From contig CM000432.1 in NCBI GenBank assembly GCA_000165345.1, positions 800,001 through 864,000 of the forward strand: DNA of 64,000 nt, given 5' to 3'. Below, piece after piece: positions 3,536-48,800 of the stretch. A program made the position numbers and the translations under genes. Each line of letters opens with the position of its first letter. The first letter of the stretch is position 1. A model generated the notes under the pieces. That model saw only the letters and a program-made list of their open reading frames with translations. It was not told where the DNA came from and did no database searches.

Positions 3536-6256
3536 ATGGAATACAAATTAAGTCCGGATAGTGAATCTGGGGTTAGGCCAGAATTAGAGAATTTAACAGT
3601 TAAGGAGATTAATCTAGAACGCCAAGGGGAGGAGGAGGAAGATGATGACGAGGAAGATGATGAGGAAGCATCCAAGCATATTAATGAGCAGAGGTCTGAG
3701 GGGCCAATGTGTCTAAGCGGACTTAAGTCTCAGGTAGCTCGTGACTTTGTCTCGGAAAGGCAAGATCAGATGAAAGAGAAAAATAATGGTGGTTCTAAGA
3801 GTAATAGTAAATCAACTAGAAATAAGCCTAGTAGAAATAAAGCTAATAATCATAGAAATGAAGATAGCTACCAGCGTCATATTGAAGAAGATAGAAAGTG
3901 CTGCAAGAAGAATGACTTAAATGACGATTGTTCATATTACAATAGGTCATCACTTGGTTCGGCGAATGATGACTTGGAGCTGCCTAAATCTGCCTGCAAC
4001 TCTAACAAAACCGTTAATCAGGCTAATTATCAATTCGAATTTCATCATCAAGATCTCCGCCACTACCATGTTTCAGAAGGCTTTGAGAGGGAAGACCAAA
4101 GGCATAAATTCTTTGAAAATGCAAAGAATCGGGGAGATGAGCCATCATCACTACTAAAGGGAAGTGCTGACAGCTCAGTACTGGTTGACCGCGGGTCTTT
4201 AAATAGCTCAAAAATCTCTCATGAAGGGTCAGGACGCAGTATCATTCAAGACAATAACTCAAATACGATCAAAGGAATTGCCCGAGTATCCGAGTCTGAT
4301 CGACTTGACCACCGCTTCTGCAGTGATGGAAGCGCTACATCCCACACTGGAAGTAATTCTAATGTTGATCCAATCGTTTTTTGTACTCCACATAATTTTG
4401 GAGCGGGTTACTTTACTGTTCCTAACGCTTATCCTGCCCCTAATGTCGAGATAAAGCTGTTTGTGGGTAGGGTTCCAAGGAATATTGAAGAAGATGATCT
4501 CCGTGATTTATTTAAGTTGTATGGTCGAGTTGTGAATGTGTCCGTGATCCGGGAAAAGAGTACTGGAATCCATAGAGGAGCAGCTTTGGTTACCATGGAA
4601 TCTGTTGCGCAAGCAGATTTTGCTCTTAGAGAGCTAAATTCTATTAAGGTATTGGACGAACTTAGAGGGCCTCTTAAGGTCCAATACTCTACGGGGGAGC
4701 CTGAAAGACTGGGTTTTGAGAGTGAATCTTGCATTCCAGGAGTTGATCAAGTCAAGCTCTTTGTTGGAGCTCTCCCTAGAAATATCATAGAAGACGAGAT
4801 TAGGGAGTTATTTTCTCCATATGGGCAAATCAATGAAATATTCATTATGAGGGAGCCTCATTCTGGAGTGGGTAAAGGTTGTGCTTTTGTTAAATATGCT
4901 TTTAAAGAACAAGGGCTTTTCGCTATCAAGTCTTTACATGGAGCTTTGACCCTTGCAGATGTCAACAGACCAATTGAAGTCCGTTTCGCATCCAAGAACC
5001 ACCAGTCATCTACTAGCAGCTCCTTAATAGCTCAAGGAGCGCATTTAACTTTTGGAACACCTGCAGCTCTTAACTTTAACGGGCACTTCAACTTTGGCCA
5101 TCATTCAATTCAAAAACTCCATTCCCCCAGAATTGTTGGAGCCAGTAATAACGTTAACAATATTTTGTGTAATGCTAGCACATTAACTTCTTCGACCTCG
5201 CCAATGTCTCAACAAGCCCCTGGCAGCTCAAAGTCTTCAGTTGGAATTGGGGGAACAGCTTACCAATTCCACAACCATCAATCAGGACAACATTTTATTG
5301 GATGCAATTCTAAAGGTTTATCGCAAAGTTCAAGCCATCATTCTTTAACCGAACAGCTGCAAATTGGTCCATTTACTGGGGTTAGTGCAACTGGAGCCAA
5401 TGCTGTACAAGCTGGTCATCATCCCCCATGTGGAAGAGCTATCACGCTATTTGATCACAATGGAATGGCTGTAGCCACAACCACTTCCACGGCTGCGATG
5501 TTCTCTCGTTCTCGTGCAGTTGGTCTTCCCATTCCAGCATCCACAAGTGCTACAGCTGCAGCTGCAATTACTGCTAATTTGATGCCAAGGTGTATTGGCA
5601 TGTGGAAGGAATACTTCACTTCTGATGGTAAGCCATATTACCATAATGAATTAACGCAGGTAACGCAATGGGAGGTTCCTCCAGAATTTTTAAGTTTCCG
5701 TCCAAACTTTTCAAGAGAAGTTGTTGGTCCACCTGGAGCAAATATCTTCATTTTCAACGTTCCGTATGAATGGGATAAGAAGAGTCTTGTTGGACTCTTT
5801 TGTCGTTTTGGAAATATCCTATCTGCTCATCTTATGGTTGATAAGACTAGTGGCCGAAATAAGGGAGTAGCCTTTGTCTCATATGATAATATCCACTCTG
5901 CAGCTGAGGCCGTTAACCATATGAATGGGTTCATCACGGAGCAAGGAAGAAAACTTAAAGTTTCCATCAAGCAAGGTCAAGAACACTTCGTCCAGCATTT
6001 ATTGAAGAATAATTTGCCTCAGGGAGGATGCAGCCAAACGGGCTATATGGAGAACTCTCAAAATAATATTCAGAGTGATTCGATTTCTATCGCCATTTCC
6101 CAGAATTCTAATGATAATGTTAATGGTAATAATGAAAGTAATACTGATGATAATAGTAATAATAATAATGATGTAAATGTTAATATTAATAACAATAATA
6201 GTAATAATAGTTGCAATAATAACAACCACAACTTCAGTTCTGGACCGTCCTCATAA
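3536..6256 (+). CDS. CELF/Bruno-like RNA-binding protein with three RRMs (RRM1 ~4454-4700, RRM2 ~4753-5000, RRM3 ~5738-5980). It has an acidic N-terminal tract, a WW domain in the linker (~5597-5686) and an Asn-rich C-terminal tail.
   Basis: 906-aa ORF. RNP motifs include KLFVGRVPRNI...RGAALVTM, KLFVGALPRNI...KGCAFVKY and NIFIFNVPYEW...KGVAFVSY. The WW motif is WKEYFTSDGKPYYHNELTQVTQWEVP. An in-frame TGA lies 6 codons upstream of the ATG. Confidence 0.85.
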   Translation: MEYKLSPDSESGVRPELENLTVKEINLERQGEEEEDDDEEDDEEASKHINEQRSEGPMCLSGLKSQVARDFVSERQDQMKEKNNGGSKSNSKSTRNKPSRNKANNHRNEDSYQRHIEEDRKCCKKNDLNDDCSYYNRSSLGSANDDLELPKSACNSNKTVNQANYQFEFHHQDLRHYHVSEGFEREDQRHKFFENAKNRGDEPSSLLKGSADSSVLVDRGSLNSSKISHEGSGRSIIQDNNSNTIKGIARVSESDRLDHRFCSDGSATSHTGSNSNVDPIVFCTPHNFGAGYFTVPNAYPAPNVEIKLFVGRVPRNIEEDDLRDLFKLYGRVVNVSVIREKSTGIHRGAALVTMESVAQADFALRELNSIKVLDELRGPLKVQYSTGEPERLGFESESCIPGVDQVKLFVGALPRNIIEDEIRELFSPYGQINEIFIMREPHSGVGKGCAFVKYAFKEQGLFAIKSLHGALTLADVNRPIEVRFASKNHQSSTSSSLIAQGAHLTFGTPAALNFNGHFNFGHHSIQKLHSPRIVGASNNVNNILCNASTLTSSTSPMSQQAPGSSKSSVGIGGTAYQFHNHQSGQHFIGCNSKGLSQSSSHHSLTEQLQIGPFTGVSATGANAVQAGHHPPCGRAITLFDHNGMAVATTTSTAAMFSRSRAVGLPIPASTSATAAAAITANLMPRCIGMWKEYFTSDGKPYYHNELTQVTQWEVPPEFLSFRPNFSREVVGPPGANIFIFNVPYEWDKKSLVGLFCRFGNILSAHLMVDKTSGRNKGVAFVSYDNIHSAAEAVNHMNGFITEQGRKLKVSIKQGQEHFVQHLLKNNLPQGGCSQTGYMENSQNNIQSDSISIAISQNSNDNVNGNNESNTDDNSNNNNDVNVNINNNNSNNSCNNNNHNFSSGPSS
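6060..6240 (+). repeat. AAT-rich trinucleotide tract encoding the Asn-rich C-terminal tail of the RRM protein
   Basis: NSNDNVNGNNESNTDDNSNNNNDVNVNINNNNSNNSCNNNNHN. Confidence 0.8.
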
Positions 6257-11152: not shown

Positions 11153-14100
11153 ATGAAGAAGATTGGATTTATTTCTTTAATTTGTATTTTAATATATCTA
11201 AATATCCAAGTTACTTTGGGCGGAGATGCTCAGACTACCCTTATTGAGCAGGAAAAGCTGTATAAAATAGGAATCGAGGAAAATGAATATGATAAAGCGC
11301 TTGAAGATGATTGGATTAAATTCACTCCCGAGAAGAGATGCCAGCTAATAATAGATAAGTTAGAAAATGATGTAAAAAAATCGATTTCAAGTGCAAAAGA
11401 AAACTTAATAGTCTATACAATACTTAGACCAATTCCTGTTGATGATTCTGGGGCATGCTTTAAAAGGATCATATTATGGCATTATGAAAAAGTTGAATTA
11501 ATCAAGAACGATAGGAGCATTGTTAATTATGAGGATATAATTCCGGTAAGGTTGTTACTGTTGGGTATGTCTCCAAAACAAATTGAAAAAGAGCCAAAAG
11601 ACCTGGCAGAAATTCCAGAATTTCTTGATATAGCTTGCAAGCAATTACTTTCTCAGAAGCCAAGAATGAGATGGCCATTGTCAGGTGCAAGATATCATCC
11701 ATATATTTCGAATATTTTAGGTTTTCAAAAAGTCTGGATTTATCGTGTGAGTGAATTATTATCAGCCTGCGCTCAACATACATATCAATCTTCAAATGGA
11801 TACATTATAATGCTTCTTGTTTCAACAGAACAAATGGTGAATGATAGTATTTTTGGAGATTACCAGAATGCTTGGAAGGGTAGGCACGGACAAAAGGATA
11901 AGAAAGAAATCATATTTGATATGGATTATGACGTTAAGAAATCAAAAAAATCGAGTCCTACTGTGAATGAAGGTGAAAAAACACAAGAACGTAAAGTTAT
12001 TGATTTTGATATTCCAAAAGATGCAGAAAAAATAAATACAAATTCTTTTTCTCGTTACCCACAAAATAATGTGGTTGATATTGAGGTGATTAAACCTCCA
12101 AGTCATAATGGAGAGGAATATTATTCAGGAAAATTTCCAGTTTATGAGATTCCAAATTCTGTTACCTCAGAAATATGTCAAGAAGTTGGGACAAAAGAGA
12201 TTCCAGGCCAATCTAAGTATAAGCAATTTCCAATGTCAAGTTCAAAAAACTATGGATTTTCCTCATTTATTGTTCCTCCAAATAGAATTGTGGAAAGGCC
12301 AAAATACACAGCAATACTACCAGATGATAGAGTAAATATCAATTTGCATGAGTATAGGAATTTCTGGAAAAGGCCAAACTATGTGAATAAATATAGAAAT
12401 ATTGATTCTCTTTATGATTATTTGGTTGAAAAAGCAAATTTAAATTGGCCAGAAACTTCAAATGATTATTTGAAATTTGAAAATGAAAATTTGGTTAAGC
12501 CTTATATTATAAATAAGTCTGAATATTTCAAAGTTGATTCAGATCCACAACTTGTGATTTATCCAAGGCAAGGAGGAAATTTGGAAAGCCGGTATATTGG
12601 AGGAGAAGAACCATTAATTCAGCCGTTTCAGAGCTCAGAACTTGTAGATTCATATGAGTATGGATCATCTGAAAATGATCCACAGATTCAGAGGCTTGCA
12701 TATTTTGATAACAATGAATTACCTGAATATGAGAGGACTATGATAGATGATGTTCCAGATAAATTCTTTCCATTTCCTGTTCAAAAACAAGGAGTTACTC
12801 TACTGAATTATAAGGACCCTCTATTAAAAGTAGATTTCCAAGGAATGACGGGAAGGAAAGTCAATAAACAGCCATTTTTAAATTTTGAAGAAGATGAATC
12901 ATTTCAAGAAAGAGATATTTCTCAGGAAGATGATGATTCAATTCCATATTCTAAATTTAGAGACACTGCAAGGAATGCAATTGTCAAATGGTATATTGAT
13001 GATGATAATGAAGGAGATACCCGTTTAACAGGCAAGGATAGAAGAATAATAAAAAAGTTATTTTCACTTATTGAACATGTTGATCCAGATCATTATAATG
13101 AGTTAATGAACAGGGGGGATGATTATATTGTTAGACAAATAATAAGGATTGGTAGATCTAAGGATAAAAACTTTGAGAATATTTTAACAGCAAGAAAGAA
13201 TAGATCAGGAGTAGATGATAATTATTATGGTGTCTATAAGGAAAAGAAGACACCAACAAAAATATTAAAATATAAAAGTAAAAAAGGTAGGAGTAGAGGA
13301 AAAAATAAAAGAAATCGTGGAAGTAAGTCAAAAAAAAGAAGTGGAAAGAATGGAGGAAAGAAAGGGGGAGGATCGTCAAAAAAGAAGCAAGAATTTGCCA
13401 GTAATAGCAGTGAGACAGAGTCAGAATCATCAGAGGAAATTACAAAAATCCCCAAAGATATATTCATCCAGGATTTATTGAATGAAAAGTATGATTTCCA
13501 AAATATACTGAAAAAGGAAAGATTGAAAAGATTCCAAAAGCTATTAAAGGATTCACTGGCAGCAAGGGTGAATGAGATTGAGAAAAAAGAAAAAATGACT
13601 ATTCCAATAAAGAATGTTGAAATCTTGAAATCTTCTGTAAAAAATGAACAAAAGAATAGGGATCAATTAGAAAAGGAATATAAGAAAAATCTGGAAGAAC
13701 ATGCAAAAATACTCGATCTTCTCAAGAAGAACCAAGAAAAGCTACGTGAAAAAATGGAGGAAGAGCATAAGAAAAAGCAGGAGGAGTTAAAGAAAGAGAT
13801 GAAAGATTCAGTCAATCAGCTTGAAGCAGCATTAGATACTGCATCAGGAACTATAGGAGAAATTGAAAAGGAAAAAAGATTTTTAGATGAAAGATTGAAA
13901 AACTTAGAAGGAGATAATCAACATATTCGAACATTAATCAGTATGAAAGATAATTATATAAAGAAGATGGAAAAAAGTAGAATTGAGTTGGAGACAAAAC
14001 AGGAAATTGAATTGAAGGAAATGAAGAAGAATTATGAGAAACAATTGAATGAGTTAAGGAAAAATTTGAGTAAAGATGATACAATTTCTGGATTGAGTAG

Positions 14101-17100
14101 TATGGTGAGTAATTTAGAATTTGAAGCAAAAAAGAATTTAGAAAAGATTGAAGAAAATGCATTAACTGATGAGAAGATTAGACAAGCAATAGAACAGAGA
14201 TTAAAAGATAGAGAAAAACAATTAGAATTGTCATATCAAAAACAAAAACAGAGAGATACTGACTATTTGAATTATGTATTACAAATTTTAGAATCAAAAG
14301 AGTCAGAAGATGCTAAGAAAGTTATTAAAGACTTGAAGGGAAGAATTCTGGAATTGGAAGAAAAACAGGAAGAGTTACAACATACGAGAGAAGAATTGGA
14401 AATGATTAACAATGATTTAATACAAACAGTTGAAGAGCAAAACAAAATCATGGTTGAATTAATGAAGAAGGTAGAGGATTTGAAGATTCAGAAAGAAAAG
14501 GCTCAGGATGAGTTAGTTTTAGCTAAAGAAAAGTATAATGATATTACACAGGTTGAAAAACGATTAAAAGATCAATTAGAAGAAATTAAGAAATCAGGAG
14601 CTCCATCTGAAGAGATATTAAAACATTTGCAAAAGTCTTTGGATGTTGCCGAGAAAGAAAGAATGTTAGCATCTGAAATGGTTAAGAATGCTGAAGTGAA
14701 TTATGGTAATAGTGAAAATAATGTTAAAATAGCTATGGAAAAGCTTGAGAAGATGAAAGTCAGATCTGATAGTCAAAAAGAGTTTGAAAGGGAATTAAAA
14801 GCTGAAATTGAAAAACGTTTGGCCTCAAACAAAAATGCTTTGGTTATGTCTGGTCAAGGAGAAAGTGATCAAGGAGAATATTTAATGAGTAGTGAAATAA
14901 AACCATTGAGTAGAAAAGAGTTGGATGAATTGAATAAATTAAGAAGTTTAGGATTGGACGAACTTTCTGATGATGAAAAAAAGAAATTATTGATTTTGGG
15001 TCAAAGACAATTAGCTACTATGGAATTATCAGTTGTTTCTTCATTTGGAGAGTTGAATAATCAAATATCTAAAGTACTAGATAATGATGAAATTGAGAAA
15101 AGTAAAGTTTTATGGAACCAGGTTTCTGATTCATCTGTCAATAGAATGGAGGTTGAGAATTCTTTAGGAGAAATTTTGTTAGAGAAAATTGAAGGTCAAG
15201 AACAATCTTTGAATAATATGAAAAGTTTGTTGGAAGAAACACAAAATACTATTTCTGAGTTGAATAAACAATTAATTATTCAAAGAGAATTGTCTGGTGA
15301 AGCAAGTAATTATTATAAAAATATTTCTGATGGTAAAATCAAAGAGAAAAGTATTGGGATTTCTTCTGATCTTCATATATATGATAATAATGGTAATGGA
15401 AAAGAGGACCAAACTGAAGGAGTTACATCAGGTGAAAATGATGAAAACTCAAATAAGGTATTTGAAGAACTTAGTAACGATATTATTATTCCAGGTGAAG
15501 AGGATATGGAAGATATTGGTAAAGATTTGAAAAATAATAACTTGGAAAGTGATGGCCCTCCTGCTATTGAATCTCCTCCATTGCCAGGACAAGGATTAGA
15601 TTCAAGTGACTTTAAAGATCAAGTTGATTACTATGTTCAGGGAGAAGAAAATGATAATGGTGAAGGTATTGAAAATTTAAAGTTTAAAAAAGAATTAAAA
15701 AATAAAATGAAAGAAATTACTGAGAGAAGCAATCAACCAAAGAAAGAAAGCAATACAGAACAAGAAGAATCAACTGAGAAACATTTGGAAAACAAAAAAG
15801 TTGAACAGGATTCTGAGGAAAAAGAGGTTTCGAAGAAAAAAACTGAATCTGGATCATCAAGTTTAGGTAGAAAAGAACGTGTAAGTTCTCCATTATCAGT
15901 CCAAAAAATGATGAGTGATACTCCTGATGTAAATTTAAAGAAAACTCTTGTTGGTAATACTGAATATGAAAAGAATGTAAATCAACATAATCATCCTTTG
16001 GAAAATACTAATAAAAGTGATGGTGATAGTTTTTCAGACTGTTTATATATGTTACATGATGTTCAAAATGAAAGACCTCCATCATCTGGAATTACTTGTG
16101 AAAACATTATTAATACTATTAAGAGAAATTTGGATCTATTTTCTGAGTCTTTTAATTCTGAAAAGCCACAAAATATGAATGAAGTTATGACAAGAACTGT
16201 ATTGCCAGGAATGCAATATGATGAATGTTATAATTCTACAATGATTACTTTTGAAGATTTCCAAGAGAAAATGATTGAAAATGGAGTTTTTGTACGTGTT
16301 TTTGTATTATTAACAGATTTTATGGATACTTTAATGATTGGAGATATTAGTCGAACTGGTTATATTTTGAGTAATATTCCACTTGTAATTTATAAAGCAT
16401 TGGGGAATACAATAAATAAATCTTCAAATAATGATCAAAGTTTAGATACTATAGAAACTGTAATTAATAATTTCCCTTCAGAATGGATACATGAACATAT
16501 GAGGACTTGTAAGGAAATTTTATCAGGAAAGAGTTTGGATGAAATTACAAAATCTAAAAGTATATCAAGTCCTAATATATTTTCACCATTAAGATCACCA
16601 TCTTTTTTAAATAATAATTATAGTCGAGAAGGATTAAAAAACTTACCACCAATATTTTTAGCAAATATTGAAGTTTCACCAAGACCTGATAAAGAACCTT
16701 GTATTCGAATTATTAAGAGAATTAAACAAAGGATATCAGAAGTTAATGGATTATTGATAAGAAAAAGAGAGTTACAAGAGAAATTAAAAATTAAAGATGC
16801 TCAAGAAAAGCTCTTTGTATTTACTTTTGAAGATACTTTACCATATAATTTATCAAATCAAGCAACTTCTCAATATTGTGAAAAGTATTTATCAGAATTA
16901 TTCATTAAAATGAATAATATGGAATGGAGAGCAAAACCGAAGAATAATTCTTTAGTTAGGTTAATAACAATACCAACATCTTCTGATCAATCAAAGGTTA
17001 ATATAAAAGATGAAAGTCAAATCAACTTGAATGAATGGAAGAAAGAGGCGTTAAGATTGACTTTTGATTCATCAATTACAAATGAGTGGATGGGGAATTC

Positions 17101-17539
17101 TTTAATTGAATATTTAACAAATAAAAGAATTACAAAGAATTTTGGATTTTTGTCTAGTGAATTAGCTAGAACTCTTACAATTAAATTATTGGATACTATT
17201 AGTTTAAAAGATGAAATGAGTAAAGACATTTTAATGCAACATGGATGGGGTATAGGAACAGGATCAGGATCAGGATCAGGATCGGGATCGGGATCTGAGT
17301 CAGATGGAATGTTAAGCAAGATATTTAATAGTATTCAAGATACAATTTCATCAACAAATAATGTAAATATGATAAGTAATAAAGAATTTAAAACAATTCC
17401 TGGTGTAATATTAATATTAAGGACTAGTGATGATATTCCTCCGAATACTATGATTAATCCTTTATTATTATCTTTAAAGCCGGATGAATCTCCTTACATG
17501 ATTGAAACCATTAAAAATAAAAATAAGGTTCAAGAATAA
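11153..17539 (+). CDS. Large secreted protein (2128 aa). It has a signal peptide, a long K/E-rich coiled-coil region (~13450-15300), a basic KKGRSRGKNKRNRGSKSKK tract and an SG dipeptide repeat near the C-terminus.
   Basis: 6387-nt ORF with ATG at 11153. The N-terminus MKKIGFISLICILIYLNIQVTLG is a classic signal peptide. The (GGATCR)n repeat at 17264-17299 encodes SGSGSGSGSGSG. Confidence 0.85.
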   Translation: MKKIGFISLICILIYLNIQVTLGGDAQTTLIEQEKLYKIGIEENEYDKALEDDWIKFTPEKRCQLIIDKLENDVKKSISSAKENLIVYTILRPIPVDDSGACFKRIILWHYEKVELIKNDRSIVNYEDIIPVRLLLLGMSPKQIEKEPKDLAEIPEFLDIACKQLLSQKPRMRWPLSGARYHPYISNILGFQKVWIYRVSELLSACAQHTYQSSNGYIIMLLVSTEQMVNDSIFGDYQNAWKGRHGQKDKKEIIFDMDYDVKKSKKSSPTVNEGEKTQERKVIDFDIPKDAEKINTNSFSRYPQNNVVDIEVIKPPSHNGEEYYSGKFPVYEIPNSVTSEICQEVGTKEIPGQSKYKQFPMSSSKNYGFSSFIVPPNRIVERPKYTAILPDDRVNINLHEYRNFWKRPNYVNKYRNIDSLYDYLVEKANLNWPETSNDYLKFENENLVKPYIINKSEYFKVDSDPQLVIYPRQGGNLESRYIGGEEPLIQPFQSSELVDSYEYGSSENDPQIQRLAYFDNNELPEYERTMIDDVPDKFFPFPVQKQGVTLLNYKDPLLKVDFQGMTGRKVNKQPFLNFEEDESFQERDISQEDDDSIPYSKFRDTARNAIVKWYIDDDNEGDTRLTGKDRRIIKKLFSLIEHVDPDHYNELMNRGDDYIVRQIIRIGRSKDKNFENILTARKNRSGVDDNYYGVYKEKKTPTKILKYKSKKGRSRGKNKRNRGSKSKKRSGKNGGKKGGGSSKKKQEFASNSSETESESSEEITKIPKDIFIQDLLNEKYDFQNILKKERLKRFQKLLKDSLAARVNEIEKKEKMTIPIKNVEILKSSVKNEQKNRDQLEKEYKKNLEEHAKILDLLKKNQEKLREKMEEEHKKKQEELKKEMKDSVNQLEAALDTASGTIGEIEKEKRFLDERLKNLEGDNQHIRTLISMKDNYIKKMEKSRIELETKQEIELKEMKKNYEKQLNELRKNLSKDDTISGLSSMVSNLEFEAKKNLEKIEENALTDEKIRQAIEQRLKDREKQLELSYQKQKQRDTDYLNYVLQILESKESEDAKKVIKDLKGRILELEEKQEELQHTREELEMINNDLIQTVEEQNKIMVELMKKVEDLKIQKEKAQDELVLAKEKYNDITQVEKRLKDQLEEIKKSGAPSEEILKHLQKSLDVAEKERMLASEMVKNAEVNYGNSENNVKIAMEKLEKMKVRSDSQKEFERELKAEIEKRLASNKNALVMSGQGESDQGEYLMSSEIKPLSRKELDELNKLRSLGLDELSDDEKKKLLILGQRQLATMELSVVSSFGELNNQISKVLDNDEIEKSKVLWNQVSDSSVNRMEVENSLGEILLEKIEGQEQSLNNMKSLLEETQNTISELNKQLIIQRELSGEASNYYKNISDGKIKEKSIGISSDLHIYDNNGNGKEDQTEGVTSGENDENSNKVFEELSNDIIIPGEEDMEDIGKDLKNNNLESDGPPAIESPPLPGQGLDSSDFKDQVDYYVQGEENDNGEGIENLKFKKELKNKMKEITERSNQPKKESNTEQEESTEKHLENKKVEQDSEEKEVSKKKTESGSSSLGRKERVSSPLSVQKMMSDTPDVNLKKTLVGNTEYEKNVNQHNHPLENTNKSDGDSFSDCLYMLHDVQNERPPSSGITCENIINTIKRNLDLFSESFNSEKPQNMNEVMTRTVLPGMQYDECYNSTMITFEDFQEKMIENGVFVRVFVLLTDFMDTLMIGDISRTGYILSNIPLVIYKALGNTINKSSNNDQSLDTIETVINNFPSEWIHEHMRTCKEILSGKSLDEITKSKSISSPNIFSPLRSPSFLNNNYSREGLKNLPPIFLANIEVSPRPDKEPCIRIIKRIKQRISEVNGLLIRKRELQEKLKIKDAQEKLFVFTFEDTLPYNLSNQATSQYCEKYLSELFIKMNNMEWRAKPKNNSLVRLITIPTSSDQSKVNIKDESQINLNEWKKEALRLTFDSSITNEWMGNSLIEYLTNKRITKNFGFLSSELARTLTIKLLDTISLKDEMSKDILMQHGWGIGTGSGSGSGSGSGSESDGMLSKIFNSIQDTISSTNNVNMISNKEFKTIPGVILILRTSDDIPPNTMINPLLLSLKPDESPYMIETIKNKNKVQE

Positions 17540-17709: not shown

Positions 17710-20097
17710 TTATGACTTCTTTTTTCTTTGTAACTTTAATACTTTCTTAAGTCTCTTATAATTCTTTTTAAAAGAATTCTTTTCAATGACCATCATTGGA
17801 ACGATCATCATTTGAATATTATTATTAAGTATCTTAGTTCTTAAGCTATTTAGCCACTCATTAATTATATCCATATCTTTTGGAGAATTAATATTATTAA
17901 TAGTGACCAGCCTTTTTTGACCTTGTTTTCTTTGCTTTTTATTTGTAGTAAATCCTAATAATTCACTTTCCTTTAATAATAAATCATTTTGATCAACAGT
18001 TTCCGTACCACCATTTTTCTTTAAACAAACTAAAGTAATTCTGACTGACTTAATTTTCTTTAAATCCATCAATAGGCGATTACAATCACTTACTCTGGTT
18101 AAGAAACCAAAAGGAAAGGCTTGTTGTAATATAATTACAGGTGAAGAATTATTAAATGTTCTTTGAAAACGATATTTCAAAGCATCAAAGGATCTTGCAT
18201 AATTATAAATAATTGAAAGATTATATTTATATAATCTGGATCCATACCAAATACTCTTTAATATACGATATCCATTCAAAGTAAAAATTGGTTGATCCCA
18301 TCTCTCAATCATATGGCCAAATAACTGATCACTATTTTTTTTTTCACATCCATATTTTTCATTTCCTATAGAAACAGGAAATAGGATAAATTTTGAAACA
18401 TTAGTGATTGGAGACGACTTTAACATTGCAATTGCTACTCTATTTATTACATTTGCAACTGAATAATTTGGAACATTACCCACAATACATGTAGATATTC
18501 TTTGTTTGTGTTTTAAAATCTTAAATATTCCAGAAACTAAACACACCCAAAGATTCTTCAAAACGGATAAATACACATGAATAGTATCAACATATACTAG
18601 ATTAAATCTTGCATCTTTTTGATATTGTGATTTTTTCATTTTTTTAAAAATCTTTTTAAAGTTTTTATACTTGTACTGTTTTTTTTGTGAAACTTGACCT
18701 TTAATCATTTCTTCAATAGCAGCATCATCCATAGGCAAGTTAATGGAAGAAACAGGAGATTTCTGATATCCAATAAATAATACTCTCTTACCTCTAGTAA
18801 GTTTAAATCTTTTAACTTTCTTAATATTTTTATTTACAGATTTAGTTAAGATTTGAAAATCTTGCTCAGTTGGTAAATAACTTCCCATAGCTGTGAATGG
18901 TATTGAATTAAACTTTTGTTGTATTGTATTAGTTTCTTTTTTAATTCTGCGTGGTAGTTTTTCATAATATCTGGAAGTGGATGCATATTTCGAATAAATA
19001 ACATAATTCATATAACACAACTCAAGAACTTTATTCATGCTATCAATATATAGAACAACATCCTTAACTTTGTGGTCATATCTTTTCCATTGGCGTTTTG
19101 AAAAGAATTCACTCATTGTTAAAAGTTGATATCTCTCTAATTTGGATTGATCATTTTCATCCACTTTTAATCCATGTTTCTTATTTTCTAAATCTAACTT
19201 TTTAAACCTTCTTAATAATTTCCGTCTCTTTTGCTTACTCAACTTATTCAAACTTTTGTTCTTGGATTTTTTAATAAAAATATCATATTTATTTTCTGGA
19301 CAATCTTCTTCTGATTTGCCAGTCACCATTAAATAAAGTCCATTTGGTGAAACGGTTGCTGCTGGTCTTTCTCTTATTTGAAGAAATGTATTTCTTTCTC
19401 TGACGGGTATTTTTTCGATAGAATCAAAATGAACCAAGGATCTTGGAACATAGTTCATTACATCAGCTGCCATATTTTTTTGATCCTGGTCGAATTTTGG
19501 CATTTTCTTATGATATTCATACCTCAAAGCTTCTTCTTTTTTGGTAACTACTGGGGCATTCAATTGATCATAACTTCCTTTATCATATACAATATTTTTG
19601 TCTTTAACTAAAACACTAATTGGTGTCTTTGAATAGTTTTCGTATTCATGCGACATCAATTCTTTAGGAGACTCCTCATAATATGTAAAACCGTCCCCAT
19701 TATAGTTTTCCTCTGGTTTATTTGAATTTTCATTACTTTGATCAGAACTCTCAGTTGAAATAGATGGCTTATTTCTTTTTTTTTCATCTTCACGATCTTT
19801 AGGAATTGAAGATCCTTGGTCCTGTAAAGCGTTTTCTGCTTCAACTGATGAAAGTTCAGAGTCATCATCAGAACTCATATCGGCGTATTCCACAAAGTTT
19901 CTTCTACTTCCTGGACTAACTTGGTTATTCTCTGTTTGAGCACCTATACCATTTTCCGATCCTTGCAACTCTTTGTTATTTTCCATTTGTAAACTATTAC
20001 TAGACGATTCTACCCATCCTATAATTAATATTATACTAAATAATATTAATATCAATCTTGAATTCATTATATCTTTATTTAGACTTTCTTTCCTCAT
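17710..20097 (-). CDS. Secreted lysine-rich protein (795 aa). Its C-terminal ~330 aa are paralogous to the C-terminus of the adjacent 2929-aa gene.
   Basis: ORF with ATG at 20097. The hydrophobic N-terminus is MNSRLILILFSIILIIGWV. The C-terminal stretch ...TCIVGNVPNYSVANVINRVAIAMLKSSPITNVSKFILFPVSIGNEK... aligns with ...TCIVGGVRSHFAAQKIYRVALKYLEMSPDLSLAKFLIIPLRIGKEN... of the neighbouring gene. The tails also match (VPMMVIEKN vs VPMIILPIFVDNN). Confidence 0.85.
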   Translation of the reverse strand: MRKESLNKDIMNSRLILILFSIILIIGWVESSSNSLQMENNKELQGSENGIGAQTENNQVSPGSRRNFVEYADMSSDDDSELSSVEAENALQDQGSSIPKDREDEKKRNKPSISTESSDQSNENSNKPEENYNGDGFTYYEESPKELMSHEYENYSKTPISVLVKDKNIVYDKGSYDQLNAPVVTKKEEALRYEYHKKMPKFDQDQKNMAADVMNYVPRSLVHFDSIEKIPVRERNTFLQIRERPAATVSPNGLYLMVTGKSEEDCPENKYDIFIKKSKNKSLNKLSKQKRRKLLRRFKKLDLENKKHGLKVDENDQSKLERYQLLTMSEFFSKRQWKRYDHKVKDVVLYIDSMNKVLELCYMNYVIYSKYASTSRYYEKLPRRIKKETNTIQQKFNSIPFTAMGSYLPTEQDFQILTKSVNKNIKKVKRFKLTRGKRVLFIGYQKSPVSSINLPMDDAAIEEMIKGQVSQKKQYKYKNFKKIFKKMKKSQYQKDARFNLVYVDTIHVYLSVLKNLWVCLVSGIFKILKHKQRISTCIVGNVPNYSVANVINRVAIAMLKSSPITNVSKFILFPVSIGNEKYGCEKKNSDQLFGHMIERWDQPIFTLNGYRILKSIWYGSRLYKYNLSIIYNYARSFDALKYRFQRTFNNSSPVIILQQAFPFGFLTRVSDCNRLLMDLKKIKSVRITLVCLKKNGGTETVDQNDLLLKESELLGFTTNKKQRKQGQKRLVTINNINSPKDMDIINEWLNSLRTKILNNNIQMMIVPMMVIEKNSFKKNYKRLKKVLKLQRKKKS

Positions 20098-21044
20098 TCA
20101 CATTTAAAATTAATTTATACAAATTACTCTTGAAGAAGGAAAAAAAAATTAGACTCTTTCTTGAACTTGACAATTATTGATTATTATATTTTTGATAGGC
20201 TTATACCCAAATCCAATTTAAAATTATTATTAAATATATTTTTTCCAATCTTAAATAACGAATTATTTATTAATCTTTTCATAAAAAATTGTGTGTACTG
20301 TACTCTCACAGATAATTTTTTGTTAAATACACAAAATACACATACTCTCAGTTAAATTTTTTTTTCATCCATTATTATTTGAAAAAAAGTTTATAATATA
20401 GTTTCTGAAGTTTCTTTAAATACACCAATAATGAAAATAATACTTAATTTTTTGAATGATTAGTTGTGAATAATTTTAATTTATACTGCTTTTCGAAAAA
20501 AAAAGGTGCACATAAAAATTGTCATTTATTTCATTAAATATTAATTTTATATAAAAAAGTTTTCGAATTCTCTTATACAAAAAACCATTACCACTTAAGA
20601 GCAGGTTAATAACCATTCAACTTAAATATTTATTTGCTTTAATAATTAATTTCCATTTTTTTAGCTTGTTTAAATTCCCACTTGCTTACCCTCGCATGCA
20701 CACAACTCATCCTTTTTTTTTTTTTTACAATAATTATAAACCTTCTAAATTAAATTAAGCCAAATTAAACACTTCAAAAGAAATTCAAATTTTATTTGAA
20801 TGTACTATTCATCACTCTCGATTGCAGTTTTTTCAAAACACTTGATTTTTTTTTTGTATTGGAAAAAAATGATAAAATTATTTGATTAATACTAACAATA
20901 ATAAAATAATAAAGCTGAAACTTGCATTCTTCATAATATATATATTAAAAATACATTACGTGTTTTTTTTCCACATTAATTAAATTAAATACCGGCGAAA
21001 AGTTTGCATATTTGCATGTATACATGAGTTTGCATGGCAAATAA

Positions 21045-21077
21045 ACCGGCATGCATGGGCATGTGGGGGGAGGGGGC
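21045..21077. promoter_or_regulatory. GCATGCAT box plus G-box (CCGGCATGCATGGGCATGTGGGGGGAGGGGGCAG)
   Basis: A GC-rich motif cluster with flanking TTTGCATATTTGCATG repeats (21001-21040). It lies ~950 nt upstream of the 795-aa gene and ~230 nt downstream of the 2929-aa stop. Confidence 0.35.
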
Positions 21078-21304
21078 AGAAATAGTGAGGTTTTGATTCA
21101 TGTATAGGCGAAAGAAAATAGTAAAATTAAAAATTAATTAAAATATAAATCTACAATATATCAATTAAAAGAATTTTCGGTGAATTAATACATTAACTCA
21201 TGTAAATTTGTAGCAATATAATTATATGGTTTTTTTTGTTTGCCAAAATTCTCTTCAAAAAAGAACTTTTAAATGGCTCATAATGATAGGTTAAGCTTGC
21301 TGCT

Positions 21305-31236: not shown

Positions 31237-33465
31237 ATGATGCTGAGATACGGGAGTTTCTTGATTTTAGTCAATTTATTGACACTAATGTTATTACAAG
31301 GCCATTTTGGACAAATTGGCTGCAAATCTTCAGACAAAGGAATTGTTAAGGATGAAATTAATTTTGAAGAAAATGCTGCCAGCTCATTTAAATTAGTTTC
31401 ACAGGATACTCCTGCTAATGAAGGTAAAGTTGAAGTAATAAGTTTGAATGATTTACTCAATGGAGCGTCAAGAAACAAAAATAATTCAATCAATGAATCA
31501 GTAGATCTTACAGATAGTGATTATTCTATTCCGACTGAATCAAGTAGTGATGGTAGACTAACAGGAATGAGTAGAGGAAGAAGCAGAAATAGGCGCTTTA
31601 AGTTCAGATTTGGAGAAGTACCTATAGATTCATCTATAGAAACAAGCAGCAGCTCTGCTAATTCAGAACCTGAAAGAGAGGACAAAGAAAAGGAAAGAGA
31701 GAAAATTCAAAATGTAAAAGAAAAGTTTTTTGAATCTGATACAAGCTTGCTTTCTGTTGTTGGAGGAGAAAAATCGACAAGTATAGAAATGATTGATAAA
31801 TCCGAGCCCTCCACAAATAGTGATGCTGAAACAGAGCCTGAAGAAATGAAGTCTCCTATTCCAATAATTCCGGTTGAAGAAGAGGTAAAACCAAATAATT
31901 CAGTAGATCAGGTCATTGAGCTATTGCATCAACAATCGAATTTGGATGCATTGAGAGAGCAGAAAAGAAAGAAGGAGTTAAAGAAAGAGAAATTAGAAAA
32001 TCAAGAGAAGGTTATGGATAAGTTAATATCTGTAATAGATTCTATGCAAAAGAGGCCACCCTTGAAAAAAGAATACGCCTATGGTGCAGTAATGAATCAT
32101 AACATTAGTGATCTGAAAAATCAAGAATTACTTTATGAGGGGTATATGGATTCTAAAAATGATGAAAATAAGGACTCTTTAAGAAGATTAAGAGATTACG
32201 AAGAAAGGAAAATCAAAAATGAGTTAAAGAATGCATCATTGACAAGGACATTCTACTCAAAACCTAGTAGCGCACTTGCTTCTGAACTGAATGCTTATTC
32301 GACCGCACTTAATTCCAGTCCAAAAAAGAATGGTTCCGGTTCAGGTTCAGGTTCAGGTTCAGGTTCTGATTCTGGTTCAAGTTCCAGTTCCATTTTTGAT
32401 TCCGTTTTTGGTTCTGATTCTAAGTCTGGCTCCAAAAAAGAAGCGGCCATATCAAGGAGTACAGATTTAAATAATCCCAAAACTAGATCTGTAAGTGTAG
32501 GGTTCTCGGATAGTTCTATTGAAGACTACTCTAGTGCTCAAAGCCATATTTCTGAATCCGGTAGAAGTTCTTCTGCAGATAACAATGTTGAGTCTAGAGC
32601 AAATACTGATGAATATGAAGGTTCAACAGAAGAAAATCTTCGCATTAAAACTCCAACACTGCCTCAAACTCATAAGAGTTATTCAACAAGTTCACCTAAA
32701 ACCTTGGATAATCTAGCTGAAGAAGAGGAAGAACTGGGCATTCCAGGTACAAATCCCGAAAAAGGACCCTCTGAAAGCCCCATAAAAATGCTTGAATCAG
32801 AGTTAATGAAACTACAAGATTTAGTAGAACTTGACTTAAAAAAGAGCACAGCCTCAAATAATTTTGGAAGGGTAAAACCAAAGACTTCTTATACTCAAGA
32901 TGAATATTTAGTTCGAACTTCAAGTCCAGAAGAAAACATCTTAAATACGGGAAAAGTAGGAATTGGTAGAATTAGAAGGACCAGAGAAAGCATAGAAAAT
33001 AAAACGCATTCCCCAGAAAACAAATCAGTTTCTAAGCCCTTTGTTACGGTTGGAAGGCTCAAATCTCCAACTAGAGCAACATCAATTGATAAAATGAGAC
33101 CTATTAAGGAAGATGATGACTCAAATTTTGACTATAACACAGCAACAGGAGTTTTCAATATTAGATCAACCAAAGTAGCCATGGATAGTCAAAATGCAAG
33201 GTTGAAAATGGAGGAGCAACTAAGAAACCCCTACAGTGCTCCATTGTTTTCTCCTTCTGACATCTTAGAAGCAAGAGAGACTCATTTTATAGGTGATAAA
33301 CCTCAGGCAAAAAGTCAGCCTAATACTTTCAGAAGAGGCATGATGGCTTCCATGTCTCAGAATATGGCGGGGAACTCATTTCCTGCAGGCCTCGGCCCCC
33401 CTCTTGTAAGAGTGCAAAAGGTTAAAGGAGAGGTAAGAAAGAATGTTATTAGAAGAAAAATGTGA
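31237..33465 (+). CDS. Secreted Ser-rich low-complexity protein (~742 aa) with a (SG)n tract
   Basis: The ORF track starts at a TTG at 31228. The first ATG is 31237 (MMLRYGSFLILVNLLTLMLLQG, a signal peptide). The (GGTTCA)n repeat at ~32333-32372 encodes GSGSGSGSGSGSDSGSSSSS. Confidence 0.8.
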   Translation: MMLRYGSFLILVNLLTLMLLQGHFGQIGCKSSDKGIVKDEINFEENAASSFKLVSQDTPANEGKVEVISLNDLLNGASRNKNNSINESVDLTDSDYSIPTESSSDGRLTGMSRGRSRNRRFKFRFGEVPIDSSIETSSSSANSEPEREDKEKEREKIQNVKEKFFESDTSLLSVVGGEKSTSIEMIDKSEPSTNSDAETEPEEMKSPIPIIPVEEEVKPNNSVDQVIELLHQQSNLDALREQKRKKELKKEKLENQEKVMDKLISVIDSMQKRPPLKKEYAYGAVMNHNISDLKNQELLYEGYMDSKNDENKDSLRRLRDYEERKIKNELKNASLTRTFYSKPSSALASELNAYSTALNSSPKKNGSGSGSGSGSGSDSGSSSSSIFDSVFGSDSKSGSKKEAAISRSTDLNNPKTRSVSVGFSDSSIEDYSSAQSHISESGRSSSADNNVESRANTDEYEGSTEENLRIKTPTLPQTHKSYSTSSPKTLDNLAEEEEELGIPGTNPEKGPSESPIKMLESELMKLQDLVELDLKKSTASNNFGRVKPKTSYTQDEYLVRTSSPEENILNTGKVGIGRIRRTRESIENKTHSPENKSVSKPFVTVGRLKSPTRATSIDKMRPIKEDDDSNFDYNTATGVFNIRSTKVAMDSQNARLKMEEQLRNPYSAPLFSPSDILEARETHFIGDKPQAKSQPNTFRRGMMASMSQNMAGNSFPAGLGPPLVRVQKVKGEVRKNVIRRKM

Positions 33466-39062: not shown

Positions 39063-39263
39063 TTTGCATTTTTTTCAATTTTTTTGCTTATCACCCACCC
39101 CCACACAAATTTATAATTATAATGGAAACTTTAATTTATTATTATTTAATATGAACAATTAGAACCTAGAAATTAGAAACTAGAATTATAATACATATTA
39201 ATCTCAAGTTAGTCAAATTTAATGCAAGAATTTGGTAAAGTTATATTATGTTAAATATAAATA

Positions 39264-40365
39264 ATGTATATGTTATTAAAAAAAATATTATTGTCGATTT
39301 TTTTTTTAAATTGGTTTTTAATAATAAAAAGAATTAAAGGGATTGATTTGAATGATGATAAGGAAATATTAATAAGAGAATTGGGTATCCCTTTAAGAAT
39401 GAAACCATTTGGAGAAAATAGAGTTCCTAGTTTAAGAAATTTTAATTATAAAACTCAAGGAGAAAATAATAATTATAGAGTGGAAATTAATAATTTATAT
39501 ATTAATGATAGATTTCAATTATCTTACTATTTGAAAATAGGTGATAAAAATGCTAAGTTTTTGTCTTGTGGTTTCAAGTTTAGGTTTAATAATACAACTT
39601 TACCAATGCTTGTAAATAGAGGAGAGGTAAGTTTTAATAAATTAAAGAAAAAAGGAAATTATTTTAGTTCAATTAATTAACTAATTATATATTGAAAATA
39701 ATTTTTGTCAGATATTAGGAACTTTGATTTGTGGGGAAAAAATGAGCTCTAAAAAAGAGCTGCCAATATTATCTTATTGTTATGGACAGGTTCAACTGGC
39801 TTATCCATTTCTACCACTTCCAATAATTCTTTTAAAAGAAGAAGATACGTTTTTGATTCAATTATGTGCAAAAAAGTTTCCAGATTATAAAGGAATTCCT
39901 TATAAATTTCCAATAATTCCTCAAGATCAGAAGATTTCATTTAATAATACATTATTTGAAACAAATTACTTAAAACTTGAGAATAAAAGTTCAAAGATCA
40001 TTTATAAAGTTAATGAGAAACAATCCAATATAATTGAATGTGTAATAAATCGATTATTTGATGGTAAAATCTTTCAAGTATTGGAATATTCCATTATAGG
40101 AATAATTGCATGCAAATTAAAGATGAAAGATCAAAAAATACAAATAGAAAGAAAAGTTATTAGAGCTTTTTGTAGTGGTAGTTCAAGTTTTCAATCTGGG
40201 AATAATACTGATTTTATTTATGGTGTTTTTAAAGTAAATAAAAAATTTCCATTTAATTGGATAGAATGTATTTCAAATCCTGAAGATTTGTTAGAAAAGA
40301 AATTAATGAATCCAGATCAAGCCATAAAAGATGCTTTATATGAAATGGATGAAGAAGAATTTTAG
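39264..40365 (+). CDS. Secreted hypothetical protein (~338 aa after splicing). Two exons, 39264..39626 and 39712..40365, joined by an 85-nt intron.
   Basis: ORF 1 has exactly 121 codons up to ...GGAGAG|GTAAGT (39627-39632). The acceptor ATTTTTGTCAG ends at 39711. Exon 2 starts at 39712 in frame with the 213-aa ORF (ILGTLICGEKMSS...). The ORF track only gave that ORF a start because it accepts TTG. Signal peptide MYMLLKKILLSIFFLNWFLII. Confidence 0.65.
39627..39711 (+). other. Predicted 85-nt intron (GTAAGT...TTTTTGTCAG)
   Basis: It has a canonical donor, a polypyrimidine-AG acceptor and phase-0 continuity between the two ORFs. Confidence 0.65.
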
Positions 40366-45839: not shown

Positions 45840-48800
45840 TTAATTGGAAGAAGGAAAACCTGACTCCTCACAAGCCTTGAGAATTGCACTACTTTGATTA
45901 GTAGTAAATGGATGACCATCATGAGAGGCTTGTTGTTCAAATGCTGATGAGCACTCATAAGCAAAGAAGGATGAGAATGTTTCATTCTTCTGTAAAGAAG
46001 CCTTCATAGATTCAAATACATGGCAAACTAAATGGAATGGAATAGATGAGGATGGAATAGTTCCAACAGTCTGAAGTTTGTGAAGAATTGAATATAATTT
46101 ATTAGCTCTTTCTTCCTCAAGTGGAGAAAATGCATAAGGAGAAGAGGTTCTGTAGCTCATCAAAGAAGAACATCCTTCTACCTTTCCATCAATACCTATA
46201 GCAACACAAACTTTCTCTACTCTGCTCTGTGAAACTGTGTAACCAAGTCTAAGTAATGTTGGATAGAGAACTCTAGCACATTCCTTTGCTGTCTTTGTTT
46301 CTTGAATTGATGATGAAATATCACATGCATTTCTTCTATCCATTGTACTGACAGAACTTCTTGGAAGAATCTTTGTTGACTTCATATAAAGTCTGAAGGC
46401 AATTTGGTTACCTCTAACAGTCATTGAAGAATATCCCATTCTAGTACAAAATACATCTCTGTTTTGAGGTTTAATTGAACTGGAAACCTCAGTCTTTTGA
46501 CCTCTAGAAGATCTTACTGGCTTTCTTGCTGCACTTCCTGGTACAACATATCCTTCAGGATATAAACCCGGAGTCTTTTGTCTAACTAATGCTTTCTCAA
46601 CATAATTCAAAGCTTTTTCTCCAACCTTTGAACCTACAACTGGACCAGAAGTTATTGGAACTCCTCTTTCATCTCTTCTTACATTAGAATAGTTAATTCT
46701 TGATTTTGGAATTGCTGGTCTTCTGAAATATGGAATAGCTGGAAGAACAAGCTTCTTTGGCTTCTGATAACCTGGAGCTGGTTTTGTAAGAACCTCTGGC
46801 TCAACAATTGATGAAGGAGATGATACAGAATTGAATTCAGAGATAGAATTGTCTTTCTGTGATGTAACACCCTTCTTTGAACTAGTATCAGAAAACATCT
46901 TTTCAATAGTAGACTGTTTCTCAGCAATTTCAGAAATCATACTATTGATCTTAATACCATCAGCTGAAGTCTCTGATCTTTTTGAGTAAATCAAGTAATT
47001 CTTGAGGAGTAACCTTTGTCTACTGTAAACTTCCATAATCTGATCAAAGTATCTTAAAGCAAAATCTGCCAATTGAACTTGGTTATGAGTAGATGAAATC
47101 TTGACCAAAAGCTTATAAAGAACGCTAAGTCTAGGCTCAACATCGGCAAAGAACTTCTTCAAAGCTCTTCTCTCAGTCTTTTGGAGCCTTCTCTCCTTAA
47201 GAGCAGACAAGTACTTCTCAATTTGGCTTTGTACATGTTGAATTCTGACGAGAAGAGATGAAATCTTTGAAGTACTGCTTGGAAGAGGAGTTTTAGAAAG
47301 AGTTGATTGTGTGAGAATTGGAGAAAGGGATAATGATGGAGTAGCATTCATTGTCTGAGAATTTCCTGAGATGTTTCTATCCACAGATTTAAGTTTCTCA
47401 GTTAATTGACGTGAAGCATGGAGAAGCTTTTGAAGAATCTTCTTAAACTCTTCAATTTCAGACTTTGACTTGAATGAGATGTTTGGTTGCTGGAGCTTCT
47501 TATTAATCTTAGAAAGCTTGGAAGATACCTTATGAACCTTCTTTGTTAAAGATTCAAAATCATTCTTAATAGAAGAATCACTAATTGGAGATGAACTAAT
47601 GGTTTGAACTAATCTCTGACATTCCTTGTTAGAATTTGAAATATCCATGTATAAGGTCTTGAGTTCAGTAATGGATGAATCAAAAGCGGTTTTATCAGTT
47701 GATGATGGAGAGATTGAAATTGATGAAGATAATGAAATTGATGGTGAATCTGCGACTCCTGAAATAGATGCAGGAATTGAAGAAATAGCATCCTCAAGTT
47801 GTGAAGCTAATTCAGATCTTCTGCTCTCAGTATCCTTAAGAATCTCCTTTGTAAGAGATCTATCTTCTTGAGAGAGTGAGGGACTTCTTAAAATGCTTTC
47901 TAACTGAGCAATCTGTGAAGAGAGTGCATTTTGCTGACTTGAAACTCTATCAACAAATATACCTGCAACAGAAACTTCAATTGAAGCTTCAGCTGACATT
48001 TCTAAAGTTGTCTTAGGCTCTGGAACTGCAATTAGGATTCTTTGGATTTGTTGAATTGGAGAAGCAGCTATAATTTCTTGTTCTACAACCTTTTGTTTAT
48101 CATTAAGCTGCTTAATAACACCAACTATTTTGTGCATATCAGAAGCAGAAAGTGGATTCTCTAAAATCTTACTAATACTTTGTTGCTGTTCTTGAAGGAA
48201 TTTTTGAGTCTTTGATTGTTCATCAAGAACCTGTAAAGAAATCTGAAGTGCTGGAGAAAGATCTGAAACACTTTGTGGTGGTAAAGATGTATGTGGACTT
48301 GCTGAGACATCTTTTGGAAGAAGAACTTCAGTAGTTGTTCCTGTTAGAGTTAAACCATAGAATGAAATGGTTGTAGCCCCTGATAATAATGGAATTAAAT
48401 CAATTGGGAACAACTTTGATGAGAAGATAACAACATCTACTCCATGTGGCATTGCCTTATTGAATGCAGCCTGAGCTGAAGTACAAACGCTTTGTACTGC
48501 ATTATTGCTGAGACCATAAATGCTTTCTGGACCATAACTGGTGGAGAATATCTTAAGACATTGAGCATAGAATGATGAAGCTGAAGTAAGAGAATTGTAG
48601 TCAAATTCAGAAATCATCTGATCCAAATCATTAGAGCTTGAGAAAGGAGCAGAATCATAAGAATATGGAGCTGAGCCAAATACAGCAAGCTTTGCAGCAA
48701 ATAGCTTTAATTGATCTCTATTGGGAATGATTTCAGAGTATTCATTCAAGTAATATGAATATTTCTGACAGATTGAATCAATAAGAGATTCTTGGAAATC

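Follow-up and report, generated by a model that had tools for sequence, protein, structure and literature searches.

Which relationship joins two adjacent genes whose secreted-type products differ several-fold in length yet resemble each other at their C-termini, and what might the part that they have in common do? The question arises from a 64,000-nucleotide stretch of Cryptosporidium parvum Iowa II chromosome 4 (~1.1 Mb), hereafter the window, in which an open reading frame (ORF) of 795 residues at 17710-20097(-), here called S, lies beside one of 2929 residues at 21305-30094(-), here called L. A first-pass annotation of the window had described the two as tandem paralogues with a C-terminal domain of ~330 residues in common, a pattern that it took as consistent with duplication of a functional module and subsequent runaway expansion of a low-complexity N-terminus. 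Both ORFs are indeed present and both open with a hydrophobic, signal-peptide-like sequence; the paralogy is borne out by the analysis described here, whereas the proposed history is not. To judge from profile alignments and from the genomes sampled, S and L are an ancient, strongly conserved pair with a homologous C-terminal domain of ~400 residues, found in the genus Cryptosporidium.

In order to assess the match between the two proteins, S was compared with L by BLASTP with compositional adjustment, which gave one significant high-scoring segment pair (E=2e-9, 22% identity, S393-580 / L2512-2680); the alignment given in the first-pass annotation is therefore significant after compositional correction. 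Single C-terminal sequences used as phmmer queries found only themselves, and profiles were needed. Family profiles were built from six species, the orthologues being taken via the encoding contigs of C. ubiquitum, C. ryanae, C. xiaoi, C. felis, C. canis and C. muris. The resulting S and L profile hidden Markov models match each other reciprocally, with full-sequence E values from 1e-11 to 5e-4 across species, and gave no further match among the 96 ORFs of the window. Alignment of the enlarged family profiles with hhalign returned a probability of 97% and E=1e-10 over 280 columns (S374-679 / L2493-2794), and the core alone (S393-584 / L2512-2684) gave E=1.8e-12, with a score of 79.7 compared with 13.4 +/- 2.3 for column shuffles (z ~29); in a global profile test, the same core reached z=14.8. 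These alignments confirm that the C-terminal regions of S and L are homologous, the match far exceeding chance expectation once composition is corrected for.

The second half of the C-terminal region (S585-795 / L2685-2929) was treated separately. When the two profiles were aligned end to end, the observed score was -33.0 against a null of -83.9 +/- 12.7, and in 1000 shuffles that preserve composition no score as high occurred (p<0.001); the -glob mode of hhalign, applied to this half alone, gave results that were non-significant or degenerate. Immediately ahead of the domain, S150-392 and L2100-2511 showed no similarity to each other, either by hhalign or by the global profile test (z=0.5). 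Because the second half passes the global test and the upstream flanks show no similarity, the shared region, as defined by alignment, reaches the C-terminus and is ~400 residues long, so that the sharing claimed earlier stands while its length of ~330 residues does not.

For description we divide the domain into two predicted lobes. Lobe 1 comprises residues 393-584 of S (18346..18921, minus strand) and 2512-2684 of L (22043..22561, minus strand), and is supported in both by BLASTP, hhalign and AlphaFold2, with shuffles and invariant columns as additional evidence in S and profiles in L. Lobe 2 comprises residues 585-795 of S (17713..18345, minus strand) and 2685-2929 of L (21308..22042, minus strand), supported by global profile alignment and by predicted secondary structure, which matches between the two, and in L also by the ratio of nonsynonymous to synonymous substitution rates (dN/dS). 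In S, the first lobe carries the motifs SY.P, RV(L)F, LP, L..C(519), TC(537)IVG.V and KF.L.P...G.E, and the second FP, LLL, VPM and a basic C-terminal helix; C2614 and C2637 of L correspond to C519 and C537 of S. The joint alignment of the two families contains 31-45 invariant columns from SY.P to the VPM tail, and 31 columns are invariant over 16 sequences, C. muris L included. The motifs picked out at first reading (RV.., TCIVG.V, KF(I/L).P..IG.E and VPM) are among those that are invariant, or nearly so, across both families and all species. We propose to define the family by the series SY.P ... RV ... L..C ... C.(V/I)G.V ... K(F/Y)...P...G.E ... FP ... (V/I)P(M/I) in a C-terminal domain of ~400 residues behind a signal-peptide-bearing N-terminus, an architecture found in S, L and all orthologues; the exceptions are some positions that are substituted in the L proteins of C. 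muris and C. andersoni, and some gene models that are truncated at the N-terminus.

A search for further members of the family was made with HMMER, using the domain profile against 1.84e9 representative proteins. Four clusters matched (one of S and three of L), all from Cryptosporidium and including C. muris CMU_018600 and C. andersoni cand_016280, and no other C. parvum paralogue was found in this set, in which any paralogue would be its own representative. A word-indexed homologue search with the 481-residue C-terminus of L returned a C. hominis fragment only, and full-length L orthologues were obtained with the full-length alignment. The S orthologue of C. muris (824 residues, E=4e-259) lies directly downstream of C. 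muris L. Because only S and L clusters were found, and because both copies are adjacent in C. muris, we conclude that, at the sensitivity of HMMER, the family is confined to the genus Cryptosporidium and has exactly two members per genome, S and L, and that, on the evidence of the genomes compared, the duplication and the difference in size between the copies are older than the split between the sampled gastric and intestinal species.

The surroundings of the pair have been kept as well. The order L - S - a gene for 2000-2140 residues on the other strand - Vps53 is identical in seven of seven species (C. parvum, C. ubiquitum, C. ryanae, C. xiaoi, C. felis, C. canis and C. muris), and S orthologues are present in at least eight Cryptosporidium species. 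In C. parvum, a spacer of 1.2 kb (20098..21304) separates the stop codon of L from the start of S, with both genes in the same orientation; the tandem arrangement is the same in all six other species, where the spacer measures 0.5 kb (C. muris) or 1.1-1.3 kb (the remaining five). Values of dN/dS, computed between C. parvum and C. ubiquitum, are 0.04-0.11 in the shared domain, with 0.11 for lobe 1 of L and 0.042 for lobe 2, the most constrained part of that protein. Both copies are under strong purifying selection, which agrees with the earlier suggestion that the shared module is functional.

S (17710..20097, minus strand), known from its ORF and translation, is identical to the C. parvum Iowa II records XP_625920.1 / EAK87782.1 / Q5CQT2. 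Its signal peptide lies at about residues 11-33 (MNSRLILILFSIILIIGWVESSS; 19999..20067, minus strand); strongly hydrophobic 19-residue windows occur in S only at residues 8-16, apart from a marginal window at 510 (Kyte-Doolittle hydropathy (KD) 1.67) within the shared domain, and the orthologues, whose N-termini are hydrophobic across species, are annotated 'signal peptide-containing protein'. The start codon of S is ambiguous (20038-20097(-)): Met1 gives 795 residues, with 10 polar residues ahead of the signal peptide, and Met11 gives the 785-residue models of the newer C. parvum and C. hominis annotations, with the hydrophobic core at the very N-terminus. Met11 looks like the real start. The signal peptide of L, at about residues 1-28 (MNTAIGRFYSQLSLLLIILSPFSKIAEC; 30011..30094, minus strand), falls below the KD 1.6 threshold and was read from the sequence; the L orthologues with a complete N-terminus begin hydrophobic and are annotated 'large low complexity protein with signal peptide'. 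Most S and L orthologues have kept the signal peptide. A scan of 19-residue windows at KD >1.6 found no convincing transmembrane segment in S or L, the one marginal window in L (2601-2604, 1.61-1.89) lying in the shared domain. Both proteins thus have an N-terminal signal peptide and no transmembrane anchor, as expected of secretory-organelle (dense- or small-granule) cargo. RxLxE motifs of the PEXEL/TEXEL type carry no weight here, since a 2929-residue protein so rich in Arg, Leu and Glu should contain some by chance.

Between the signal peptide and the shared domain, S has two regions of different character. Residues ~34-150 (19648..19998, minus strand) form an acidic, Ser/Asn-rich, low-complexity linker that is poorly conserved (18-31% identity with gaps across species; dN/dS 0.34), and poor conservation in S is limited to residues 1-150. 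Residues 151-392 (18922..19647, minus strand) are specific to S, with no counterpart in L, and are conserved at 62-84% across species with a dN/dS of 0.084; for residues 151-795 as a whole, the value is ~0.08.

The structure of the shared domain was predicted with AlphaFold2, run with 16-sequence alignments. In the models of both proteins, strands alternate with helices in the same order, and the secondary structures of S and L, mapped on the alignment, agree with a three-state accuracy (Q3) of 0.82 overall and 0.86 in the second half, compared with 0.35 +/- 0.08 for shifted controls. Lobe 2 is the best-modelled part of S, with a predicted local distance difference test score (pLDDT) of 70-88, and lobe 1 of L lies mostly at 65-86. 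Foldseek found no match in the PDB at E<=0.001, the best being two-lobed ATPases with template modelling (TM) scores of ~0.13-0.2; the weak structural neighbours common to both models are alkaline-phosphatase-superfamily proteins and P-loop kinases. The first-pass annotation had not recognised the domain, and neither Pfam nor the PDB sequences supply a name for it: full-length S and L matched zero Pfam-A families at E<=0.01, 12 domain sequences searched at E<=10 returned sub-threshold noise only (Ribosomal_L28e 0.0055, Helicase_Sgs1 0.07), and a profile search of PDB sequences found no relative, its single match (E=2.1) being to a chalcone-synthase-like enzyme over 60 residues. The Walker A motif (GxxxxGK[ST] in the loop after strand 1) that marks P-loop NTPases of the AAA+ or RecA-like kind is absent from the domain. 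We regard it as an orphan alpha/beta domain, probably two-lobed, with two invariant cysteines, which may form a disulfide.

Gene identifiers were assigned by consecutive numbering from three anchors. Primers published for cgd4_3530 (CRISPR guide and repair) fall at the 3' end of the ORF at 45840-50576(-); the gene that runs off the start of the window encodes an AMP-binding acyl-CoA synthetase, which fits the description of cgd4_3400; and cgd4_3410 is the RRM/WW protein (ORF 3536-6256). The annotated order is RRM/WW - Vps53 - 2128-residue protein - S - L, with no further gene called between. Because the anchors fix the numbering and nothing is called between the RRM/WW gene and L, S is most likely cgd4_3440 and L cgd4_3450. 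Counting back from cgd4_3530 would instead make S cgd4_3450 and L cgd4_3460, an assignment that is ruled out by the identity of cgd4_3410 as the RRM/WW gene.

Under these identifiers, both proteins appear in a published pull-down with anti-DG8 serum from HCT-8 cells 3 h after infection, cgd4_3450 with 21 unique peptides (log2 fold change 2.94, p 0.026) and cgd4_3440 with 7 (log2 fold change 4.07, p 0.017) (PMC13241007 S1 Table); DG3, DG5, SG3, SG4, CP2 and cgd4_3530 were enriched alongside them (PMC13241007). From this literature, and through the inferred gene-id mapping, S and L would be expressed as proteins at 3 h post-infection and would co-purify with DG8. We found no main-text mention of cgd4_3440 or cgd4_3450 in the searchable literature, and searches with accessions and orthologue locus tags likewise gave none; the paralogy of S and L and their shared domain appear to be undescribed there, the genes being annotated as hypothetical or with the low-complexity label quoted above.

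Cryptosporidium builds a unique extracytoplasmic niche with secreted proteins, mostly without recognisable domains, and lineage-specific secreted paralogue pairs are common in apicomplexans. In this setting, the explanation to which we give somewhat better than even weight is that S and L are a genus-specific secreted paralogue pair, carried as secretory-granule cargo to the host-parasite interface, with the shared domain serving for binding or assembly. One ancestral gene was duplicated in tandem before the gastric species (C. muris, C. andersoni) split from the intestinal ones, and the two copies have stayed adjacent since. Their products would enter the secretory pathway through their signal peptides, be packed into dense or small granules, be released at or shortly after invasion and then be incorporated into the multi-protein layer where parasite and host meet. 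Within that layer, the shared domain would serve as a common binding or assembly module, either of S with L or of both with one partner or ligand, and the differing N-termini would give differing reach or scaffolding. The organelle of origin, the location at the interface and the binding role of the domain are the steps that we infer.

Several observations weigh against this explanation. As granule cargo and as interface proteins, S and L are candidates. Their gene identifiers come from counting consecutive numbers off anchors, without a direct link from identifier to sequence. Ribosomal proteins, actin and EF2 are on the anti-DG8 list as well, which makes enrichment in it weak evidence, and cgd4_3440 and cgd4_3450 are absent from the four proteins common to the anti-DG8 and GFP-DG8-C pull-downs (PMC13241007). 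As regards the domain itself, the AlphaFold2 models are of low-to-moderate confidence (S300-795, pLDDT 54 and predicted TM score (pTM) 0.43; L2490-2929, pLDDT 65 and pTM 0.48), and the agreement in secondary structure between them is not independent, because both model alignments included both families. The second half of the domain is not significant in local hhalign (16.8 compared with 14.0 +/- 2.1 for shuffles). Finally, invariant residues lie in the predicted structure in loops after the adjacent TCIVG and KF.I.P..G.E strands, a position that fits a catalytic or ligand-binding pocket equally as well as a protein-binding surface.

The position of these loops would also suit an enzyme. The shared domain would then be a divergent catalytic domain (an alpha/beta hydrolase, a transferase or a phosphatase-like one) whose substrates, of the host or of the parasite, lie in the vacuole or at the interface, and S and L would resemble two isoforms, one short and one long. 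The alkaline-phosphatase-superfamily proteins among the structural neighbours are weak matches, and the sequence searches returned no family above noise; we regard an enzymatic role as unlikely.

A similarly low probability attaches, in our view, to the domain being a sorting or packaging module that directs both proteins to the same secretory organelle, or keeps them condensed there, and does not act after secretion. In favour of this, the domain is conserved on two otherwise unrelated secreted proteins, it stands at the extreme C-terminus with a basic helix at its end, and both of its carriers came down with granule proteins. However, 400 residues at the dN/dS of this domain are large for a sorting signal, and no other granule protein in the proteome has the domain. 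We also think it rather improbable that the shared region is a new fold or functional module of the Cryptosporidium lineage through which S and L heterodimerise, or bind one host or parasite ligand, and so help to build the genus-specific attachment and feeder interface; were this true, the pair would be essential structural components peculiar to the genus and might serve as targets for intervention.

The history first proposed for the pair, taken as a recent duplication of the C-terminal module and then a runaway expansion of low-complexity sequence at the N-terminus of L, fares far worse. The N-termini are unrelated and differ ~6-fold in length, and L has charged, low-complexity stretches with dN/dS 0.25-0.29 (0.25-0.34 for the low-complexity parts of S and L together), as such an expansion would have it. 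However, the N-terminal ~2480 residues specific to L (22562..30010, minus strand), which have no Pfam match, are made up of charged low-complexity stretches alternating with conserved blocks at residues ~500-1000, 1200-1300, 1800-2000 and 2400-2511; dN/dS ranges by block from 0.09 to 0.29 over this part and is 0.09-0.14 in the conserved blocks, and Tandem Repeats Finder (TRF) detected two tiny arrays only in the L gene. The N-terminal parts of the two proteins are thus unrelated, as had been stated, with no similarity between them, but low-complexity is a poor description of S151-392 or of these blocks. Moreover, both copies, with the same sizes, are present in C. muris and C. andersoni, and S and L are ~22% identical, whereas orthologues from C. 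parvum and C. muris reach ~50% across the 500-520 C-terminal residues that align. Because L (21305..30094, minus strand; ORF and translation) has orthologues of 2674-2983 residues in every one of the seven species, the distant C. muris included, a recent or runaway N-terminal expansion is ruled out, and we consider this history as a whole very improbable. The possibility that two Lys/Asn/Ile-rich proteins of an AT-rich genome resemble each other through composition or by chance was tested and is rejected: identity is just 22%, phmmer was blank and the second half fails local tests, but the composition-adjusted BLASTP match, the composition-preserving column shuffles of core and second half, and profiles that match only each other among window ORFs and representative proteins, with flanks dissimilar in the same test, leave next to no room for it.

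The L-specific part also contains, at residues ~1546-2012 (24059..25459, minus strand), a helical motif of ~35-45 residues (..G...AL..LL..L.I.) that is present five or six times. A regular-expression scan placed copies at 1546, 1746, 1817, 1864 and 1978, and reading of the sequence added a sixth at ~1923 (...APQALEYFLKSTDLD). Examples of the motif are GVKNALDYLLDELEN, GPKEALEELLDNLDI, GDEKALNKLLNVLKI, APQALEYFLKSTDL and GCRDALSEIYDELGI; the internal repeat is not detectable at the DNA level.

The pair lies at ~0.54 Mb of the 1.1-Mb chromosome, an internal rather than subtelomeric position. G+C content in the window is 23-43%, and long intron-free ORFs encode eukaryotic proteins, among them Vps53, the RRM/WW protein and a protein with 11 Kazal domains. 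In the interval from 11 to 57 kb, the majority of genes encode a signal peptide (window ~11000-57000, ORFs at 11153, 17710, 21305, 31228, 34026, 35980, 37557, 40597, 45840, 51624 and 53086); they form a dense cluster that has the look of a neighbourhood of secreted-protein genes internal to chromosome 4. The ORF at 45840, cgd4_3530, is a dense-granule candidate by hyperLOPIT and a DG8 partner (PMC13241007). The syntenic neighbour of S is a 2128-residue protein at 11153..17539 on the plus strand, identified from its translation and from a position kept in six species; it has a signal peptide and a (GS)n run, and its middle third holds a long Lys/Glu-rich coiled coil. The protein is probably cgd4_3430, which appears in a 3-6 h secretome (PMC12604037); family profile searches gave it no homology to S or L, although it adjoins both in every species checked. 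Its Gly-Ser dipeptide run (GSGSGSGSGSGS; 17254-17295, TRF period 6, 7 copies) is near the C-terminus, and another is found at ~32300-32400 in a 745-residue secreted protein (31228-33465), a low-complexity trait common to unrelated neighbours.

Elsewhere in the window, the acyl-CoA synthetase at 1-1262(-), cgd4_3400, which is of the 'bubblegum' type (PMC11005404), has a signal-peptide-like hydrophobic N-terminus (MKILRLALLVFAFMMSINLIGS). Two ORFs of 138/139 and 213 residues at 39261-40365(+) follow one another in the same direction with little space between them and, instead of separate genes, may represent exons of a single gene with an intron. A second pair of a small and a large protein is encoded at 51624-52346(+), a Cys-rich secreted protein of 240 residues, and at 53086-56775(+), a protein of 1229 residues that combines 11 Kazal domains with a poly-Thr mucin stretch. 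These two, probably cgd4_3540 and cgd4_3550, have in common a Cys-rich C-terminal domain of ~175 residues (BLASTP E=9e-35, 38% identity).

If the inferred identifiers hold, these ancient paralogues with their strongly constrained orphan domain would be two uncharacterised proteins that co-purify with the DG8 interface complex. The domain is a defined module for experimenters to express, solve, tag around or delete, and a knockout of S or L singly may be buffered by the paralogue. The pair adds one more lineage-specific secreted family to those of the apicomplexans, useful to Cryptosporidium cell biology and of modest general interest, and opens no long-standing question alone.

In fold, the nearest comparison is with three-layer alpha/beta sandwiches (the alkaline-phosphatase/sulfatase superfamily, P-loop kinases and the tandem lobes of AAA+/RecA-like proteins), through weak structural matches only. 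Other parallels lie among the secreted families of Cryptosporidium (MEDLE, SKSR, FLGN/NFDQ, WYLE and CpLSP), which, like S and L, are genus-restricted, have signal peptides, contain no domain known elsewhere, include adjacent paralogues and are thought to work at the host-parasite boundary (PMC6532270, PMC12604037). S and L differ from CpLSP, MEDLE, SKSR and the others in having no sequence relationship to them by profile search, only two members and an internal locus, and in being strongly conserved one-to-one orthologues in every sampled species, whereas those families vary in copy number and evolve fast. The proteins of the interface complex of DG8, SG4 and cgd4_3530 (PMC13241007) are, like S and L, large, carry a signal peptide and lack both a transmembrane domain and any recognised domain; S and L have no sequence similarity to cgd4_3530, and neither belongs to the set of four proteins that the two pull-downs share. 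The Kazal/mucin protein and its 240-residue neighbour, in the same window, are also an adjacent small and large secreted pair with only a C-terminal domain in common; their domain is cysteine-rich, shorter and more similar between the two copies, and the proteins are unrelated to S and L, but the same evolutionary pattern is seen in both pairs of this gene cluster.

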